A DNA stretch of 61,021 nucleotides from an uncultured Bacilli bacterium (GTDB taxonomy: Bacteria; Bacillota_I; Bacilli_A; RF39; UBA660). This document shows, in pieces, positions 31,955-39,085 of the stretch (position 1 is the stretch's first letter; each line of letters starts with the position of its first letter). The notes below the pieces were generated by a model. The model ran no database searches. It was not told where the DNA came from and saw only the letters and a list, made by a program, of their open reading frames with translations. Both the position numbers and the translations under genes were made by a program. The DNA is taken from positions 1 through 61,021 of the forward strand of contig CAKOQM010000002.1 of NCBI GenBank assembly GCA_934101275.1, in the 5' to 3' direction.

Positions 31955-31997
31955 CATGTAAAATTTATTCTAATTAACAACCGTCTGGAAAATATTT

Positions 31998-32162
31998 CTA
32001 TTCTTTTTTTTCATCTTTTTTCATTTTTTCAATTTTATTTTCTAGTTGTCTTACATAATTATTAGCATGCGATAAGGCATTAGATACTCTTTTGAGTTCA
32101 CTTTTTAATTTTCTATTTTCTTCTCTTAATTTAAAATTTTGTTTTATTAAATCACTTGTCAT
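31998..32162 (-). CDS. possible 54-aa coiled-coil peptide (below ORF-track cutoff)
   Basis: The minus strand reads MTSDLIKQNFKLREENRKLKSELKRVSNALSHANNYVRQLENKIEKMKKDEKKE*. It has a heptad-like charge pattern but only a weak RBS, and it is divergent from the RT gene. Confidence 0.25.
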   Translation of the reverse strand: MTSDLIKQNFKLREENRKLKSELKRVSNALSHANNYVRQLENKIEKMKKDEKKE

Positions 32163-32288
32163 ATACTTCAATCTTTCTTTGCTATACTAAGCATTATCCT
32201 TTGTTTTAATGATAATTGCAATATTTTTATGTTCTTTTCATAAAATCTGTGAACAGTAACCTAAATGTAAAAAGAAAGCCGAAAAATG

Positions 32289-32297
32289 TGATACAAT
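32289..32297 (+). promoter_or_regulatory. extended -10 promoter candidate upstream of the RT
   Basis: TGaTACAAT, with a weak -35. It would start a transcript at about 32304. Confidence 0.35.
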
Positions 32298-32310
32298 GTA
32301 AATAATTTAG

Positions 32311-32339
32311 ATATCATTAAAATTTATGATATTTTTTTT
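32311..32339 (+). other. hairpin plus U-tract immediately 5' of the RT ribosome-binding site
   Basis: ATATCAT (32311-32317), 8-nt loop, ATGATAT (32326-32332), T7 (32333-32339). RBS GAGGTG follows 10 nt later. It could be an attenuator, an ncRNA 3' end, or part of an ncRNA. Confidence 0.35.
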
Positions 32340-32358
32340 AGAAGATTGAGGTGTTTTT

Positions 32359-33867
32359 ATGAGATTAGTAACAAGTATGAGTGCAGCAAAAGCAAAAGAA
32401 TTTTTTTTAAAATCTGAAAGTTATTTTAGTTTTGATTTACCTATATATTTTGATTTTGAATCAATTCTTCAATTATCAGATTCGTTAATCATGGGTAAAA
32501 ATTTTATGAATACAATAGTAAAAAGTAGAGCCGATGCTCCTGAAAAAAAAGAAAATGTTGATTATTTTATAATACATAATAAGGATGGAAAATATGCATG
32601 GAGACCGTTTGAATTAATTCACCCAATACTATATGTAAAACTAGTTAATGATATATGTGAATCTAAGAATTGGAGTGAAATTAAAAAAAGATTAAAAGAG
32701 TTACATTCTAATCCAAATATTATTTGTTGTAGCATGCCAGGTGAATCTAAAAGTAAAAAAACAGATAAAAAAGAAAATATTTTACGATGGTGGAATGAAT
32801 ATGAACAAAGAAGTATCTCAACATCCTTAGAATATTCATTAATGGCAAATACCGATATATCAAATTGTTATCCATCAATATACACCCATTCAATATCATG
32901 GGCATTACATACTAAATCAATCTCCAAAGCTACCAAAGGTGATTTATCATACATTGGTAATTTGATAGATAAAGATATTGTAAATATGAGATACGGGCAA
33001 ACAAACGGAATTCCTCAAGGAAGTATTTTAATGGACTTTGTTGCTGAAATTGTTTTAGGATATTGTGATGAATTACTTACAGAAAAATTAAATAACTTAA
33101 ATATAAAAGATTATAAAATTTTAAGATATAGAGATGACTACAGAATATTTTGTAATAATAGTTTTGAGTTGGAATTAATTTTAAAGAGCTTATCAGAAGT
33201 ATTAATTGAATTGAATTTTAAATTAAATACTGCAAAAACATACTCAACAAAAGATATAGTAATAAAATCTGTAAAAGATGATAAAATTAGCAGATTCATT
33301 AATCAGAATAGTTTTGAAAAATTAACTTTACAAAAACAATTGTTTTTGATAAACAAATTCAGTAAAGAATATCCTAATAGTGGCAGTCTAATTGTCTTAT
33401 TGAATGATGTTTTTAAAGAAAAAATAGAGAAAATGAAAAAAAGGCCAAACAGTTATGAACAAGTTATAAGTATTGTTATTGACATAATGTACAATAATCC
33501 AAGAACATATCCAATATGTGTAGCAATATTAAGCCATATTTTTAAATTTTTTGATAAAACAAAAATTGAAAAATATATAGATTTAATTATCAATAAGTTT
33601 AAGTCATTAACAAATACTATTTATTTAGAAATATGGTTACAACGATTAACTATTCCAATTGATAGAAATAAAAAATATTCTAGTGGAAGTATATGCGAAA
33701 AACTCTATAATAAATCAATGAATATTTGGAATTCAGAATGGTTAAGAGAGAATATTAGAAGACAATTTGATGAAAATTTAATTATCAATGAGCATGAAAT
33801 TGCAAAAATGCTATTATATTTATCACGCACAGAAGTGGATGCTTTTTCTATTGGATACGATATATAA
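32359..33867 (+). CDS. stand-alone reverse transcriptase of the Abi/UG (defence-associated, DRT-like) type
   Basis: 502 aa. TDISNCYPSIYTHS (motif A), NGIPQGSILMDFVAEIVL (motif B region), RYRDDYRIF (YxDD box at 33127-33138). It has an N-terminal extension of about 160 aa and a helical C-terminal region of about 200 aa. No intron maturase/endonuclease, retron or DGR hallmarks are visible. Confidence 0.85.
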   Translation: MRLVTSMSAAKAKEFFLKSESYFSFDLPIYFDFESILQLSDSLIMGKNFMNTIVKSRADAPEKKENVDYFIIHNKDGKYAWRPFELIHPILYVKLVNDICESKNWSEIKKRLKELHSNPNIICCSMPGESKSKKTDKKENILRWWNEYEQRSISTSLEYSLMANTDISNCYPSIYTHSISWALHTKSISKATKGDLSYIGNLIDKDIVNMRYGQTNGIPQGSILMDFVAEIVLGYCDELLTEKLNNLNIKDYKILRYRDDYRIFCNNSFELELILKSLSEVLIELNFKLNTAKTYSTKDIVIKSVKDDKISRFINQNSFEKLTLQKQLFLINKFSKEYPNSGSLIVLLNDVFKEKIEKMKKRPNSYEQVISIVIDIMYNNPRTYPICVAILSHIFKFFDKTKIEKYIDLIINKFKSLTNTIYLEIWLQRLTIPIDRNKKYSSGSICEKLYNKSMNIWNSEWLRENIRRQFDENLIINEHEIAKMLLYLSRTEVDAFSIGYDI

Positions 33868-33882
33868 AAAATACGCTGTATC

Positions 33883-34761
33883 CTAGATTGTTAGGGGTGA
33901 AAAATTATAGTCAGAGTAGCCATTACTAAAATCAATACCAGAAGTGTTATCATAAATATTATTAGAATAAGTAGAACAAACATTTATGACAGATTTCTTC
34001 ATCATAGTTAAAGGTTGATCTAATATTTCAACTGTATAATTAATCAATTTTTGAAAACAAAACCAATCTAAATAATGTTGTAAATGTTTAGTGGAAACAC
34101 CTTTAAAATGAGATAAAAAAGTTGCTGATTCGGAATGCAATGAATTTATATTTTCAAGATTATAACCATTGTTATTAACGTGAGTCCATGATTTTATTTG
34201 TTCTAAATTTATATTATTTTCTTTAGCAAATTTTTCATAAGAAGACTTACAATCTGTAATAAGACAATTTATCTTTTTTGCTTTATCTTTAAAAATACTT
34301 TTTACCTGTTCTGATGTTATTGGTCCAGTACCAGCAATTTCTAAAAAGCAATTGTCACATTCATCTATTGCTGAAGCAATACATACTTGGCGATTACTTA
34401 TACCTCTCTTTGAGCCACCTTTAGAAGACCGAGGTTTTGAAAATCTCGGCATATTTTTTGTTTTCTTTCCTTTTAAATTAATAGATTTTCTTATTATTGA
34501 AATACTATTTAAAACCTTGTGTTTTAATAAAAAAACTGTGTTTTTGTTACAATTCATTTTCGCTGCTGTCTTTTTGATAGAAAACTTATCATTCATGCAT
34601 TCAAAAAATATTAAAATTTGATTATATTTTAGCTTAGTATGTGAAAGAGGCATACTGGTACATGAACTAAATTTTTTTGAACAATCCTTGCAATAGTAGG
34701 TTTGAACTTTGTTTTTATCATGTCCGTTTTTAATAATATTGTTAGATTTACAGCGGCACAT
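33883..34761 (-). CDS. IS1595-family (ISXO2-like) DDE transposase, probably 5'-truncated IS remnant
   Basis: 292 aa. N-terminal zinc-ribbon remnant ...KSNNIIKNGHDKNKVQTYYCKDCSKKF. DDE region: ...ASAIDECDNCFLEI, CLITDCKSSYEKFA, ENINSLHSESATFLSHFKGVSTKHLQHYLDWFCF. There is no upstream UTR or inverted repeat, because the ATG abuts the ImmA fragment. Confidence 0.7.
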   Translation of the reverse strand: MCRCKSNNIIKNGHDKNKVQTYYCKDCSKKFSSCTSMPLSHTKLKYNQILIFFECMNDKFSIKKTAAKMNCNKNTVFLLKHKVLNSISIIRKSINLKGKKTKNMPRFSKPRSSKGGSKRGISNRQVCIASAIDECDNCFLEIAGTGPITSEQVKSIFKDKAKKINCLITDCKSSYEKFAKENNINLEQIKSWTHVNNNGYNLENINSLHSESATFLSHFKGVSTKHLQHYLDWFCFQKLINYTVEILDQPLTMMKKSVINVCSTYSNNIYDNTSGIDFSNGYSDYNFSPLTI

Positions 34762-34965
34762 GAGTTAGGTCATATATTATTGCATACAGGAATTAAAGCC
34801 AATAATTTTTTATGTCCAATATCTGGTACAAAGAATGATATCGAAAAAGAAGCATACTCTTTTGCATCTAATTTACTTATGCCAATGGCTGAATTAAATA
34901 AAAGAGTCGACTTATATCAAGATGAAAATGGAAAAGTGGGATTGGATGAATGTTTACAACATTAA
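34744..34965 (+). pseudogene. ImmA/IrrE-family zinc metallopeptidase, N-terminally truncated fragment
   Basis: RFTAAHELGHILLH (HExxH) ... EKEAYSFASNLLMPMAEL matches the ImmA/IrrE (COG2856) core. Sequence upstream of about 34744 is the antisense of the transposase gene, so the N-terminal part of the gene is missing. Confidence 0.6.
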
Positions 34966-35016
34966 CATATAAATTCTTGTTAATTATTTTTTATAATTCG
35001 CTAAAATAAAGATGCT

Positions 35017-35367
35017 ATGTTATACTATCTATATAACCTAGGAAGTGATTATGTGAAAGAACTTGAAGAAAAAATAGTTAAGTTTGCTAAGGATAGGGAT
35101 TGGTTACAATTTAATACGCCAGAAAACTTGGCTAAATCGATTTCTATTGAAGCTGGCGAGCTCCTTGAATGTTTTCAATGGAACAATAATTATGATAAAA
35201 ATGAATTAAAGTATGAAATAGCTGATGTGCTTAATTATTGTATTCTGCTTTGTCATCAGATAGGCGTTGACCCTAAAGAAATAGTTTTAGAAAAAATGGA
35301 TATTAGCGCTCAAAAATATCCTATTGAAAAAGCAAAAGGTAAGAGTACAAAATACGATAAATTATAG
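35017..35367 (+). CDS. MazG-like nucleotide pyrophosphohydrolase (small all-alpha type)
   Basis: FAKDRDWLQFNTPENLAKSISIEAGELLECFQW...EIADVLNYCILL. The likely true start is GTG 35053 (MKELEEKI..., RBS AGGAAG), giving 104 aa. Confidence 0.8.
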   Translation: MLYYLYNLGSDYVKELEEKIVKFAKDRDWLQFNTPENLAKSISIEAGELLECFQWNNNYDKNELKYEIADVLNYCILLCHQIGVDPKEIVLEKMDISAQKYPIEKAKGKSTKYDKL

Positions 35368-35406
35368 AAAGTTTAACGTTTGAATAATGGTTTGTAGGTG
35401 AAGTAA

Positions 35407-37287
35407 ATGTTAGTTTATGAAGGAATAAAATCTGAATTTATGGATGATGTTGACTTAGGGATTATTGCAGATAAAATTAGAAATAAATATATAGAAGTTA
35501 TTAAAAGAAAACCTAGTATTCCCGAATTTGACTCTTGGAAAAATTCTTTACAATATATGAGAGGAGTTCTAAGTGATAACGAGATACCAAATAACAGTGG
35601 TATTGCCATAGAATACAATATACCTCCTACTGGTTGTAGAATTGATTTTATGATGTCAGGTTATAATAAAGAAAAGTCTAATATAATTATTATTGAATTG
35701 AAACAGTGGAGTGTTGCTAAAGAAGTAGATGAAGTTGATGGCATCTATAAAGTAAATACTTATACAGGACATAGTTTAAGAGATGTTGTTCATCCGTCAT
35801 ATCAAGCTATGACATATGCTAATCTAATAAAAGATTATAATGAACTAGTACAACAAAAAAATATAAATGTAATACCTTGTGCCTATCTGCATAATTACTA
35901 CTTTGAGGATGATGACACATTACTTTCTGGTCATTACAAAGAATATATAGACAATGCTCCTTTGTTTGGTCATAATGATGTGGTTAAATTAAGAAACTTT
36001 ATAAAAAAATACATATTAGAAGGTGACGACGGCAACTTACTTTATGAAATTGAAAGTGGAAAAATAAGACCATCAAAAATGTTGCAGGATTCTTTAAGCG
36101 ACATGCTAAAAGGTAATAAAGAATTTTACATGATTGATAATCAGAAAATAATTTATGAATATGCCATTAGAAATGCCATTGATACTATTTCTAAAAATAA
36201 GAAAAGCGTTATGATTATAAGAGGTGGTCCTGGAACTGGAAAATCTGTGTTGGCTATCAACCTTCTTGTTGAATTAAATAATAGAAATATGACATGCTTT
36301 TATGTAACTAAAAATATGGCTCCTAGAAATGTTTATTCAACTAAATTACGAGGAAATTTCACAAAAACATATATCAATCATTTATTTCAAGGCTCCGGTA
36401 ATTTTATAGATGCTGAAAAAAATGAATTAGATTGTTTAATAGTTGATGAAGCACATAGATTAACTGAAAAGTCAGGCAGTTATCAAAACAAAGGCGAAAA
36501 TCAAGTTAAAGAGATTATTAATGCCTCAAGATTTTCTGTATTTTTTCTTGACGAAGACCAAAGGGTAACTTTAAGAGATATTGGTAGTGAAGACTTAATT
36601 AAAAAATATGCTAATGAACTCGGGGCAGGTATATACTTATTTGAATTAGATAGTCAGTTTCGTTGCAATGGTTCGGATGGTTACTTAGCCTGGCTTGATA
36701 GGATTTTAGAAATCAGAGATACAGCTAATCTTGATATAGATGGTTTTGATTATGATTTTAGAGTACTTGATGATCCAAATGAATTAAGAAAATTGATTGA
36801 AGAAAAAAATCGTCTTAATAATAAATCACGCATTGTTGCAGGTTACTGTTGGGAATGGCCAAAAGGAAGTTCTAGAAATAATACAAATTATCATGAAATA
36901 CAAATTTCTGAGAAAAATTTTGAAATGAGTTGGAATTTAGAGGCTGGTGAGTCTTTTGCAATAGGTTCTACATCTGTTAATGAGGTAGGATGTATTCATA
37001 CCGTTCAAGGATTGGAATTTGATTATATTGGTGTCATAATTGGGAACGATATGAGATATGAAAATGAACATGTTGTGACAGATTACAGAAAAAGAGCTAA
37101 AAGTGACAGTTCATTAAAAGGCATAAATAAAATAGCCAAAGAACAGGGTCAAGAAACAGCAGATGAAATTGCTGGAAAAATCATAAAAAATACGTATAGA
37201 ACATTAATGACCCGCGGATTAAAAGGATGTTATGTTTATTGTACTGATGAAAAATTAAGTGAATATATAAAGAAAAATATAAAGTAG
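35407..37287 (+). CDS. DUF2075-type nuclease-helicase (Nhi-like: PD-(D/E)xK domain plus SF1 ATPase)
   Basis: 626 aa. GCRIDFMMSG...IIIIELKQW (D...ExK), Walker A RGGPGTGKSVLA, Walker B LIVDEAHRL, C-terminal IHTVQGLEFDYIGVIIG and YRTLMTRGLKGCYVYC. Confidence 0.75.
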   Translation: MLVYEGIKSEFMDDVDLGIIADKIRNKYIEVIKRKPSIPEFDSWKNSLQYMRGVLSDNEIPNNSGIAIEYNIPPTGCRIDFMMSGYNKEKSNIIIIELKQWSVAKEVDEVDGIYKVNTYTGHSLRDVVHPSYQAMTYANLIKDYNELVQQKNINVIPCAYLHNYYFEDDDTLLSGHYKEYIDNAPLFGHNDVVKLRNFIKKYILEGDDGNLLYEIESGKIRPSKMLQDSLSDMLKGNKEFYMIDNQKIIYEYAIRNAIDTISKNKKSVMIIRGGPGTGKSVLAINLLVELNNRNMTCFYVTKNMAPRNVYSTKLRGNFTKTYINHLFQGSGNFIDAEKNELDCLIVDEAHRLTEKSGSYQNKGENQVKEIINASRFSVFFLDEDQRVTLRDIGSEDLIKKYANELGAGIYLFELDSQFRCNGSDGYLAWLDRILEIRDTANLDIDGFDYDFRVLDDPNELRKLIEEKNRLNNKSRIVAGYCWEWPKGSSRNNTNYHEIQISEKNFEMSWNLEAGESFAIGSTSVNEVGCIHTVQGLEFDYIGVIIGNDMRYENEHVVTDYRKRAKSDSSLKGINKIAKEQGQETADEIAGKIIKNTYRTLMTRGLKGCYVYCTDEKLSEYIKKNIK

Positions 37288-37321
37288 CTTTTGAGAGCAT
37301 TTATGATGGGAATGGTAGTTT

Positions 37322-38893
37322 ATGAAAATGTCTGAGGAAATAAAAGATTTTGGTAAAGAATATGTTTATGAACAATATACGAGAATTGTAGAAGATTTTA
37401 AGGAATATGAGAAGATAACAAAGACGAAAATGTTAGAGGCCATTTATAAAGTTTATGAGGATTCTTATAATATTATTGATATTTGTACAACAAGAGAACT
37501 AAAATTTTTAAAAATGACATTAGATTATATGGTAAATCATCATGATGATTCATCAAAACAAATGCTATTTTCTGATAAATATAATTGGGAAAGGAATATT
37601 CTAAGAGATAAATTTTTGCTTTATCGTTCTTTTGATGATGATATTAGTATTCCTGAAGAAATAGTAGATAAAGTAAAGGAAGCTTTAAAAAAGGTTAAGT
37701 GGGCTGACCAAAAGAAAATAGATGATATCAATGAATTTTTAGTAAGTTATTGTAAAATGCAAGGTTCAGCCTTTTTGCCATCTGTTTGTCAAATTGGTTC
37801 GGTTGTCACAGGGGCAAAAGAAGAATCATTATGGCAACACATGTTAAATAATAAATTATTTAATTATTATGTTTTCCTTCGTTTACAAGAAGTCGAAGAC
37901 TTAAAAGAACCAATGCCTGTTGCTATCTTTAATGACTTTTTTGATATTGCAGATGACTTAGATGAACAAAGAAAAAAACAAGGTCTTGCTGGTAATATAA
38001 ATATTGACTCGAAAAAATTTAAAACAATGTTTTATAATGATTTTGATATTTATAATCCTAAAATCAAAAAATTTCTAAAAGAGTTACGTGATTTATCTTT
38101 TTGTTGGCCATCAGTCATTAAGCCAATTAGAGATTATGCTATGCTTAATCTTGAAAGAGATTCTTTAAAAGAGCTTATAAAAAGTGTTCCTGCTTTAAAC
38201 AATATAGATTTAACTAAATTTTTTAAAATCTTAGATGAAGCGATGGACGAGATGCCATCTGGGGCTTTAAATGGCTGTACCCCTAATGAAGCTAAACAGA
38301 TTAAAGTGCGAGAATTAAAAAATAGAATGAATAAAGAAGAAAGATATGTTGAGCAAAAAAATGCCTGTTTATCTAAAAAAGATGTCGACTTATTTTATAA
38401 AATCTATTTTACTTTATTAGAATTTACGAACGAAAAATATAAGATAAATCCTCATCTTAAACTTTATAATCAAAAAGCCATCAATCCAGCTGAAATGGAA
38501 GATGTTATAAATAAATATTGGGAGAATAAGGAATTTATAACGACAGAATTTTGTCTAGCTAATCCTTATAAATTTAATAAGGAAGAGTTAAGTTTAACCA
38601 GTGAATTTAAAAAAGGTATTAGAAGAATGTTTATTATTTGTCGTTATGAAGAAGAATACACGGCTTTATTAACCGAAGAAAAAGTTTATATGATAAAGGG
38701 CTTAAATGTTAATATTGATGAAATTATTCCTTATGATGAACTACCTTATGCGGTTACAACATCAATTATTCCTTTTAAAGGTAATTTAGTTTACGATAGT
38801 TTGTTTTTTGGCACTGACATAAAATTAGGCGTAGGCTTTGAGGAAATGATTGATAAAGAGTATGAACAAACAATGAAATATTATCACTTGTAA
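37322..38893 (+). CDS. 523-aa hypothetical protein, no recognisable motif
   Basis: A long uninterrupted ORF, co-oriented 34 nt after the helicase gene and followed by a strong terminator. No P-loop, nuclease or TM signature was seen. Confidence 0.6.
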   Translation: MKMSEEIKDFGKEYVYEQYTRIVEDFKEYEKITKTKMLEAIYKVYEDSYNIIDICTTRELKFLKMTLDYMVNHHDDSSKQMLFSDKYNWERNILRDKFLLYRSFDDDISIPEEIVDKVKEALKKVKWADQKKIDDINEFLVSYCKMQGSAFLPSVCQIGSVVTGAKEESLWQHMLNNKLFNYYVFLRLQEVEDLKEPMPVAIFNDFFDIADDLDEQRKKQGLAGNINIDSKKFKTMFYNDFDIYNPKIKKFLKELRDLSFCWPSVIKPIRDYAMLNLERDSLKELIKSVPALNNIDLTKFFKILDEAMDEMPSGALNGCTPNEAKQIKVRELKNRMNKEERYVEQKNACLSKKDVDLFYKIYFTLLEFTNEKYKINPHLKLYNQKAINPAEMEDVINKYWENKEFITTEFCLANPYKFNKEELSLTSEFKKGIRRMFIICRYEEEYTALLTEEKVYMIKGLNVNIDEIIPYDELPYAVTTSIIPFKGNLVYDSLFFGTDIKLGVGFEEMIDKEYEQTMKYYHL

Positions 38894-38985
38894 TTATTTA
38901 TGATAAAAATAAGAATAGTTTAGAATTGAAATTAAAGAAAAGGCTGAATAATTAATAATACGGGATTAATAACCATTATGAATTT

Positions 38986-39010
38986 GCTTTCGTAAAAAGA
39001 AAGCTTTTTT
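38986..39010 (+). terminator. rho-independent terminator closing the island operon
   Basis: GCTTTC (38986-38991), loop gtaaaaa, GAAAGC (38999-39004), then T6. Confidence 0.7.
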
Positions 39011-39085
39011 CTTTTATAAAATATTAAAGACAAAAGAAAGTAATTATGTTAAAATGTTTGTAGATGTAAATTAAAGGGTGGTAAT

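Follow-up and report, generated by a model that had tools for sequence, protein, structure and literature searches.

A MazG-type pyrophosphohydrolase and a nuclease-motif DUF2075 helicase form a recurrent two-gene unit and candidate defence module beside an independent flank gene in an uncultured Bacilli bacterium

Introduction

Nhi of Staphylococcus epidermidis (SERP2475) and the Nhi-like system SG141 carry an N-terminal PD-(D/E)xK-type motif followed by a DUF2075 superfamily 1 (SF1) helicase, an architecture that recurs in the 626-amino-acid (aa) protein examined here. Nhi and its Nhi-like relatives are single-gene systems, whereas the subfamily of this protein nearly always has a pyrophosphatase partner. 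Here we analyse a stretch of 61,021 nucleotides (nt) from an uncultured Bacilli bacterium (GTDB lineage Bacteria; Bacillota_I; Bacilli_A; RF39; UBA660), positions 1 to 61,021 of the forward strand of contig CAKOQM010000002.1 in assembly GCA_934101275.1, which we call the window. In it, a gene for a MazG-like pyrophosphohydrolase is followed by the nuclease-helicase gene and then by a gene for a 523-aa protein, P523. An earlier note on this DNA had read the three as a candidate defence operon; we find that the MazG gene and the nuclease-motif DUF2075 helicase gene are a genuine two-gene unit, and that P523 is a resident gene of the flank, independent of the pair.

A pair of this kind is already on record. 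Millman et al. 2022 (bioRxiv 10.1101/2022.05.11.491447, supplementary file 11) list the candidates SG192 and SG193 as "Pyrophosphatase", SG192 being a 98-aa pyrophosphatase and a 643-aa DUF2075 protein from Bacillus firmus. Both SG192 genes are orthologous to the window pair and likewise adjacent, with 53% identity between the helicases over the 402 aligned residues available and 45% between the pyrophosphatases; SG193 has the reverse gene order and is more distant (25% identity). The two entries stand in a supplementary table only, without mechanism, name, distribution, or mention of the variable slot and of the spread to archaea and Bacteroidota reported below. Our literature search found no joint mention of DUF2075 with MazG or pyrophosphohydrolase, nor of Nhi-like with MazG, a modularity-network preprint does not mention MazG or DUF2075 domains, and the subject of recent 'bacterial Schlafen' papers is the Schlafen nuclease domain, not the DUF2075-type helicase. 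The earlier statement that the link was undescribed therefore holds for papers joining the two domains, but it has to give way to the supplementary list in which the pair appears. Additionally, Xu and colleagues (PMC6765204) reported DUF2075 NTPases beside DUF3427-DUF3883 modification-dependent nucleases and suggested joint testing, and the DefensePredictor paper places MazG among predicted, unvalidated defence domains. The pair is functionally uncharacterised so far; the slot and the cross-phylum breadth are what we add here.

Results

Helicase contexts were drawn from look-ups for three helicase homologues and from a metagenome scan (80 loci), and were kept where at least 1.5 kb lay upstream of an intact helicase gene, which gave 42 distinct contexts. 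In 39 of them the helicase has a MazG gene no more than three genes away. It is immediately upstream in 17, two genes upstream in 19, three genes upstream in one and immediately downstream in one; one further copy (L121), missed by open reading frame (ORF) calling, was recovered by tblastn, and three contexts (L164, L174 and L175) have none. Intergenic spacers in the pair loci measure 0-39 nt, save one of 127 nt, and the gene 3' of the helicase is different in nearly every context. The link between MazG and nuclease-helicase drawn in the earlier note is thus upheld, and it reaches across phyla.

The pair persists in plasmid homologues that are 25-54% identical. MazG stands upstream of the DUF2075 gene on plasmids of Halalkalicoccus (a haloarchaeon), Priestia and Marivirga, and downstream of it on a Halomonas plasmid; a Bacillus thuringiensis plasmid has the order NTP (nucleoside triphosphate) pyrophosphohydrolase, HNH, DUF2075. 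The plasmids with the pair span haloarchaea, Bacteroidota, Halomonas and the Bacillus group. The helicase matches four phage-collection records, each with a MazG match nearby, though order or orientation varies in some. In a control comprising about 1 Mb of unrelated P523 loci, MazG occurred only together with the helicase.

One gene is wedged between MazG and the helicase in 19 of the 42 contexts, with gaps of about 0-17 nt on each side. Loci with a filled slot are L086, L100-L103, L106, L108, L109, L111, L115-L119, L124, L131, L133, L171, L009 and L185; in the window copy the slot is empty. The occupants are mutually unrelated and include AbiU2-type HEPN, DUF4145, AIPR, AAA_15/21 ATPase, HNH and membrane or unknown proteins, together with an Mrr-like endonuclease recognized by sequence inspection. 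Families AbiU2 and DUF4145 are listed in restriction-modification (R-M) operons by a HEPN survey that also describes the PrrC/EcoprrI paradigm (PMC3710099), and a survey of His-Me finger proteins reports an HNH group encoded beside MazG genes (PMC5714182). The analogy suggests that the pair may host second-line effectors in its slot, as R-M operons host PrrC-like genes. That the pair also guards the slot gene in a PrrC-like manner is conjecture, which we draw from the same analogy.

The MazG-like protein matches PF12643 (E = 2.4e-18; 66.6 bits against a cut-off of 27) and aligns end-to-end with the archaeal pyrophosphatase of PDB entry 4qgp (E = 6.7e-18) and with mouse and human DCTPP1 (RS21-C6; E about 1e-15). 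In the alignment to 4qgp and DCTPP1 it keeps the ExxE...ExxD metal ligands (EAGELLE and EIADV) and the FQW motif. Its first reading as an all-alpha MazG-type NTP pyrophosphohydrolase is borne out by a score above the PF12643 cut-off and by the retention of all four acidic ligands. DCTPP1 is a house-cleaning enzyme with a preference for 5-modified dCTP, and its similarity to the window MazG is a lead that the latter may share this preference.

The partner's helicase domain, of the SF1-type DUF2075 or Schlafen (SLFN) group 3 class, is encoded at 36202..37287 on the + strand. It matches the full PF09848 profile over residues 266-614 (E = 3.7e-103) and contains Walker A GGPGTGKS and Walker B VDEAH. 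We consider the ORF intact because its C-terminal tail agrees with the family consensus. A helicase 3' end chimeric with flank DNA, raised by blastn homology to the sister contig L057 from 37248, is ruled out by the same tail, true homology starting at the stop codon. The family is large: all 8,000 candidates scored reached E<=1e-10, and among at least 8,000 hits the top 120 are 78-100% identical. No close helicase relatives were found in a scan of viral_contigs.

The N-terminal domain (35407..36180, + strand) is assigned a PD-(D/E)xK-type motif from residue conservation and the topology of its AlphaFold2 (AF2) model. Residues 1-260 have no match in Pfam or among PDB sequences; a search of PDB with the helicase sequence likewise found no match, and an N-domain profile returned only noise from PDB sequences. 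The motif comprises E69, D80 and E97-x-K99. Homologues down to 20% identity all keep E69, E97 and K99, and nearly all keep D80; in a 62-sequence set it is D80, E97 and K99 that never vary, with E69 almost as constant. In the AF2 model (predicted local distance difference test, pLDDT, 86) these residues map to an alpha-beta-beta-beta-alpha-beta core, the arrangement that PD-(D/E)xK would predict. Conservation and model together make a PD-(D/E)xK nuclease fold likely, but it is unconfirmed.

Kinship to Nhi is remote. The PADLOC Nhi profile matches at E = 1.1e-13, limited to residues 256-421, and alignment to the verified Nhi-like SG141 of B. cereus gives 22% colinear identity (pairwise E = 1e-6) over a span that takes in the nuclease motif and Walker A/B. 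Judged by these alignments, the window helicase is a colinear relative of the Nhi-like family and not a member of it. The architecture that the earlier note had likened to Nhi stands as a DUF2075 helicase with Walker motifs, colinear with SG141; full-length Nhi membership does not stand at 22% identity to SG141. Nor does the genomic evidence fit single-gene operation in this subfamily, given a MazG companion in 39 of 42 contexts. As a separate observation, a Hymenobacter canadensis plasmid (NZ_CP114769.1, L179, 4001-7987) has two DUF2075 genes in tandem, downstream of a DNA methyltransferase gene and a DUF4747 gene; these paralogues share 47% and 27% identity with the window N-domain, and MazG was not detected there.

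P523, encoded at 37322..38893 on the + strand by ORF call, proved to be a flank gene of a large uncharacterised family and not the ORFan it had been taken for. A word-indexed search gave at least 317 homologues, those listed being 52-94% identical and about 520 aa long, and a profile search gave 1,657 representative clusters (50% identity) at E<=1e-3 and 850 at E<=1e-10. A one-genome-per-species scan yielded 79 P523 loci, mostly from gut "uncultured Bacilli" metagenome-assembled genomes, with Traorella massiliensis in addition; six metagenome loci brought the set to 85. When these were searched by tblastn with the window MazG and helicase, matches appeared in L007 and L009 only. L007 is from the same species as the window, with P523 94% identical and the same MazG-helicase-P523 arrangement, and in L009 the pair lies downstream of P523, not adjacent. 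The other 83 of the 85 loci are without the pair.

Seen from the helicase side, no P523 homologue occurs in 92 other helicase loci, and P523 directly follows the helicase only in the window and L007 among 95 helicase loci. Outside this genome the three-gene order is therefore shared by one locus of the same species, and the co-occurrence check does not sustain the proposed cassette. A third component is equally hard to see in P523, since L057 has it near parA without the pair and the 92 other helicase loci do without it. We conclude that P523 is a resident flank gene, independent of the pair; in the window strain it is probably read through from the module promoter, its juxtaposition being incidental. 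Neighbour clustering shows hypervariable P523 flanks across about 80 other genomes, with AbiEii, HipA-like, AAA_14/DUF4143 ATPase, SWIM and DUF6429 proteins among others. A DUF6429 protein, a SAM-like 142-aa protein and a SWIM protein stand together beside P523 in 21 of the 85 loci.

The earlier note had recognized no motif in P523, and Pfam, NCBIfam, PHROG and PADLOC are all blank for it. Its profile has no match among PDB sequences, and no match to it was found in phage and plasmid collections. The AF2 model (pLDDT 93.8; predicted template modelling score, pTM, 0.84) is mainly helical, with beta-hairpins and a C-terminal beta-rich domain. A Foldseek search of PDB and BFVD with this model gave nothing significant, with a weak partial likeness to winged-helix regulators and small barrels. 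The family's invariant motif DEMPSGxLNGxTPN sits where distant members have a SEC-C zinc motif; PF02810 (SEC-C) is found in distant members P0347, P0356, P0357, P0386 and P0389, just before the region aligning to P523 332-512. P523 as a SEC-C motif protein is ruled out by the cysteine-free DEMPSGALNGCTPNE at that position. As a guess, P523 might bind nucleic acids or act as an adaptor.

The layout of the three genes is as the earlier note described it, with co-oriented ORFs separated by gaps of 39 nt (MazG to helicase) and 34 nt (helicase to P523) and a single terminator after the last. By ORF call on the + strand, the MazG-like gene runs over 35017..35367 as an ATG-started 116-aa form or over 35053..35367 as a GTG-started 104-aa form, and the 626-aa nuclease-helicase gene occupies 35407..37287. 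The 104-aa product from GTG 35053 is likely the true one because an AGGAAG ribosome-binding site precedes that start and homologues span 104-109 aa. This site and a probable promoter are read from the sequence of the upstream region (34966..35052, + strand), which has an extended -10-like TGTTATACT at about 35019-35027. L007 has the same pair and other upstream cargo, and its homology with the window starts at about 34954-34980. The transcription unit ends at an intrinsic terminator (38986..39013, + strand; stem 38986-39004, then a T-run), and no terminator-like site occurs on the + strand from 35000 to 38986 before that hairpin. Co-orientation and short gaps carry little weight here because, of the 24 ORFs with 150 aa or more in the region from 26.6 to 55.1 kb, 22 are on the + strand.

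The pair sits in a strain-variable defence hot spot at about 31962-37283 of the window, bounded by the ftsH terminator and the P523 ribosome-binding site, as delimited by blastn and MAFFT against L057 and L007. The FtsH and ParA proteins of the sister contig L057 are each 99% identical to those of the window, its gene order is ftsH-Abi_2-P523-parA, and MazG and helicase are missing. Nucleotide homology between the two runs through the ftsH terminator (about 31961) and resumes at the helicase stop codon and P523 ribosome-binding site (about 37283). In between, the cargo of L057 (5994-7938) is an Abi_2 (AbiD/F-like) gene plus a 127-aa ORF without a Pfam match, read by eye as an HsdS fragment. 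In L007 (60-1141), a gene for a 343-aa multi-pass membrane protein lies ahead of MazG and helicase. Since these three related contigs differ at this place, we regard it as a strain-variable defence hot spot, with P523 in its right flank by parAB.

Besides MazG and the helicase, the window hot spot holds an AbiP2 reverse transcriptase, an IS1595 transposase and an ImmA fragment. The AbiP2-type reverse transcriptase (32359..33867, + strand; PADLOC AbiP2 over full length, E = 4.4e-187; RVT_1) stands by itself as a single-gene system at the island's left end. The presence of this gene upstream of the pair, and of Abi_2 at the corresponding place in L057, supports a defence-island setting. No methyltransferase family matches were found among the window island genes, and Dcm-like methyltransferase genes, recognized by sequence inspection, are variable neighbours in other pair loci. 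Other neighbours in pair loci are SauUSI-like and NUDIX pairs and Fic, AbiEi-like and serine-recombinase-like genes. The ORF of the IS1595-family transposase (33883-34761, - strand) starts inside the HExxH codons of the truncated ImmA/IrrE (M78) peptidase ORF (34702-34965, + strand), with no space for a terminal repeat of the insertion sequence; the overlap looks like a deletion or rearrangement junction at which both elements are incomplete. The ImmA/M78 fragment as the module's original regulator is ruled out by L007, which has the module without it.

Modification-linked genes recur around the pair. SauUSI-like and NUDIX pairs flank the MazG-DUF2075 pair in 14-16 fetched loci, and SauUSI itself is modification-dependent (PMC6765204). 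The SauUSI-like PLDc-DEAD-Helicase_C-DUF3427 proteins, most with a small NUDIX gene, were seen in L086-L090 (2185-5321), L095-L097, L101, L110, L119, L131 and L141. They make up a second pairing of a nuclease-helicase with an NTP pyrophosphatase, built from different folds; no discussion of it was found in the literature examined. In a Streptomyces context, DUF3883 lies near the DUF2075 gene. On a Priestia aryabhattai plasmid (NZ_CP083270.1, L181, 2548-5866), the gene for a 355-aa McrB_N (5mC-reading) protein overlaps the MazG start by 4 nt and DUF2075 comes next, with a mutT gene and a restriction endonuclease gene directly upstream; this may be a three-gene, modification-reading version of the module.

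Discussion

Our data show that a small MazG-type enzyme and a nuclease-motif DUF2075 helicase travel together, and we think it probable that they form a defence unit that works independently of P523. The pair has already been shortlisted by others as a defence candidate, and one recorded test was without protection. Several observations weigh against a paired defence unit. SG192 has an "x" in the column in which verified systems such as SG141 have a "v", so that no protection is recorded against the phage panel of Millman et al., and SG193, from B. thuringiensis, is marked "Cloning failed" (bioRxiv 10.1101/2022.05.11.491447). Helicase contexts without MazG exist (L164, L174 and L175), and MazG was not detectable beside the Methanosphaera, Hymenobacter and Streptomyces plasmid homologues; these three contexts and some distant plasmid homologues indicate that the helicase can exist without MazG. 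PADLOC matches to Nhi and AbiO are weak (about 1e-14) and confined to the P-loop region, Foldseek with the N-domain model gave a best E of 0.054 (MspJI 0.46), which is not significant, and the 626-aa protein has no Pfam domain of a modified-base reader (SRA, PUA/EVE, DUF3427, McrB_N and similar). The specificity of the pyrophosphatase, moreover, is read from homology alone, and the defence-gene neighbours could reflect hitch-hiking.

Other readings of the locus have to be set against these data. That MazG, helicase and P523 make one three-gene defence system seems to us most improbable. The 34-nt gap between helicase and P523, the lack of a terminator between them and the single terminator after P523 would suit it, and tight spacing of the gene after the helicase in some other loci makes variable downstream partners conceivable; however, the helicase-P523 order is confined to the window and L007 among 95 helicase loci, the pair is missing from 83 of 85 P523 loci, L057 has P523 beside parA with no pair, and genes in this genome are as a rule co-oriented and tightly spaced. 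Defences based on dCTP deaminase or dGTPase act by nucleotide depletion, and the pair might do likewise in an abortive defence, with the pyrophosphatase draining canonical dCTP/dNTP pools and the helicase as sensor or switch. The MazG fold does hydrolyse (d)NTPs, MazG is among DefensePredictor's predicted, unvalidated defence domains, and an ATPase partner could supply regulation. Even so, we judge this unlikely for a 104-aa enzyme without a regulatory domain whose nearest characterised relatives, DCTPP1, are house-cleaning enzymes with a preference for modified dCTP, and conserved nuclease-motif residues point to a DNA-cutting effector, not a pure sensor.

A helicase that works alone like Nhi, with MazG as a dispensable accessory or as antitoxin-like self-protection that tempers toxicity, would be in line with the single-gene nature of Nhi and verified SG141, with the three contexts and several distant homologues that are without MazG, and with the failed cloning of SG193, which could hint at toxicity. 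Yet the pairing persists where helicases have diverged to about 25% identity, it spans bacterial phyla and archaea, and it outlasts insertion of other genes between the two, which is hard to square with a dispensable MazG; we hold this explanation to be quite unlikely. A non-defence pair for DNA repair or maintenance on mobile elements, joining pool sanitation to a repair helicase-nuclease, we rate as very unlikely, even though DCTPP1-type and MutT-type proteins are classical house-cleaning enzymes, SG192 is without recorded protection, and the neighbours often include serine recombinases and integrases. Defence is favoured by the Abi, HEPN, HNH and Mrr-type genes embedded in the operon, by the defence-gene neighbours, by a strain-variable hot spot that has Abi_2 in the sister strain, and by a patchy distribution combined with high conservation, typical of horizontally moving defence genes.

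A defence unit of MazG and nuclease-helicase would be a restriction-like, first-line unit against phages or mobile elements, methyltransferase-less and carried on mobile islands. The helicase-nuclease would translocate on foreign DNA and cut it, in the manner of Nhi-type enzymes, and the pyrophosphatase would work on nucleotide pools, most likely by hydrolysing non-canonical (5-modified) dCTP-type nucleotides. Because a methyltransferase is absent, the cue separating self from non-self must be DNA modification (type IV logic) or DNA structure (Nhi logic). We tentatively favour a link to modified nucleotides, with the DCTPP1-like enzyme acting on a modified dCTP-type pool, because of the nature of that partner, the McrB_N gene in the Priestia operon and the recurrent SauUSI-like and NUDIX neighbours; for this part of the proposal we would not claim even chances. 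Either modified bases would be kept out of host DNA so that the nuclease spares self, or the phage's supply of modified dNTPs would be destroyed.

A broader proposal, which we regard as doubtful, is that MazG-[slot]-DUF2075 operons are a widespread bacterial and archaeal methyltransferase-less restriction platform that polices modified dNTPs and guards interchangeable slot effectors. On such a platform the DCTPP1-like enzyme would define self for a modification-sensitive nuclease-helicase, or would starve phages that build hypermodified DNA, and the HEPN, HNH, AIPR and Mrr-like slot genes would be guarded as second-line effectors by PrrC-like logic.

If the pair is a working immune unit, nucleotide-pool sanitation would be tied directly to a DNA-targeting effector, a link unseen in the characterised single-gene Nhi-type systems. 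It would also give a bacterial setting to two kinds of protein with human counterparts, DCTPP1-type enzymes and Schlafen-type helicase domains, and the interchangeable operon slot would be a handle for discovering new effectors. The sole negative published test used a limited phage panel, and the modified-base hypothesis is a concrete reason to retest. For annotation, the lesson is that tight strings of co-oriented genes in compact Bacillota genomes need not be systems; here the third gene is a bystander.

Comparison with described systems places the pair among several of them. DCTPP1/RS21-C6 and 4qgp have the all-alpha MazG fold family, the ligands and the FQW motif in common with the window MazG; in eukaryotes, however, DCTPP1 is a stand-alone house-cleaning enzyme, whereas the window MazG gene shares a mobile operon with a nuclease-helicase gene. 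The lone HEPN, Abi or nuclease genes wedged in the pair resemble PrrC/EcoprrI, where a second-line effector lies inside an R-M operon, and unlike that operon the pair is without a methyltransferase or specificity subunit. SauUSI-type type IV enzymes offer a parallel for the pair as a whole, being nuclease-helicases that were seen here encoded next to a small NTP pyrophosphohydrolase gene (NUDIX). The folds all differ, with a phospholipase D (PLD) nuclease and an SF2 helicase in SauUSI and a NUDIX enzyme beside it, and SauUSI carries a dedicated reader, DUF3427, for which no counterpart was found in the DUF2075 protein.

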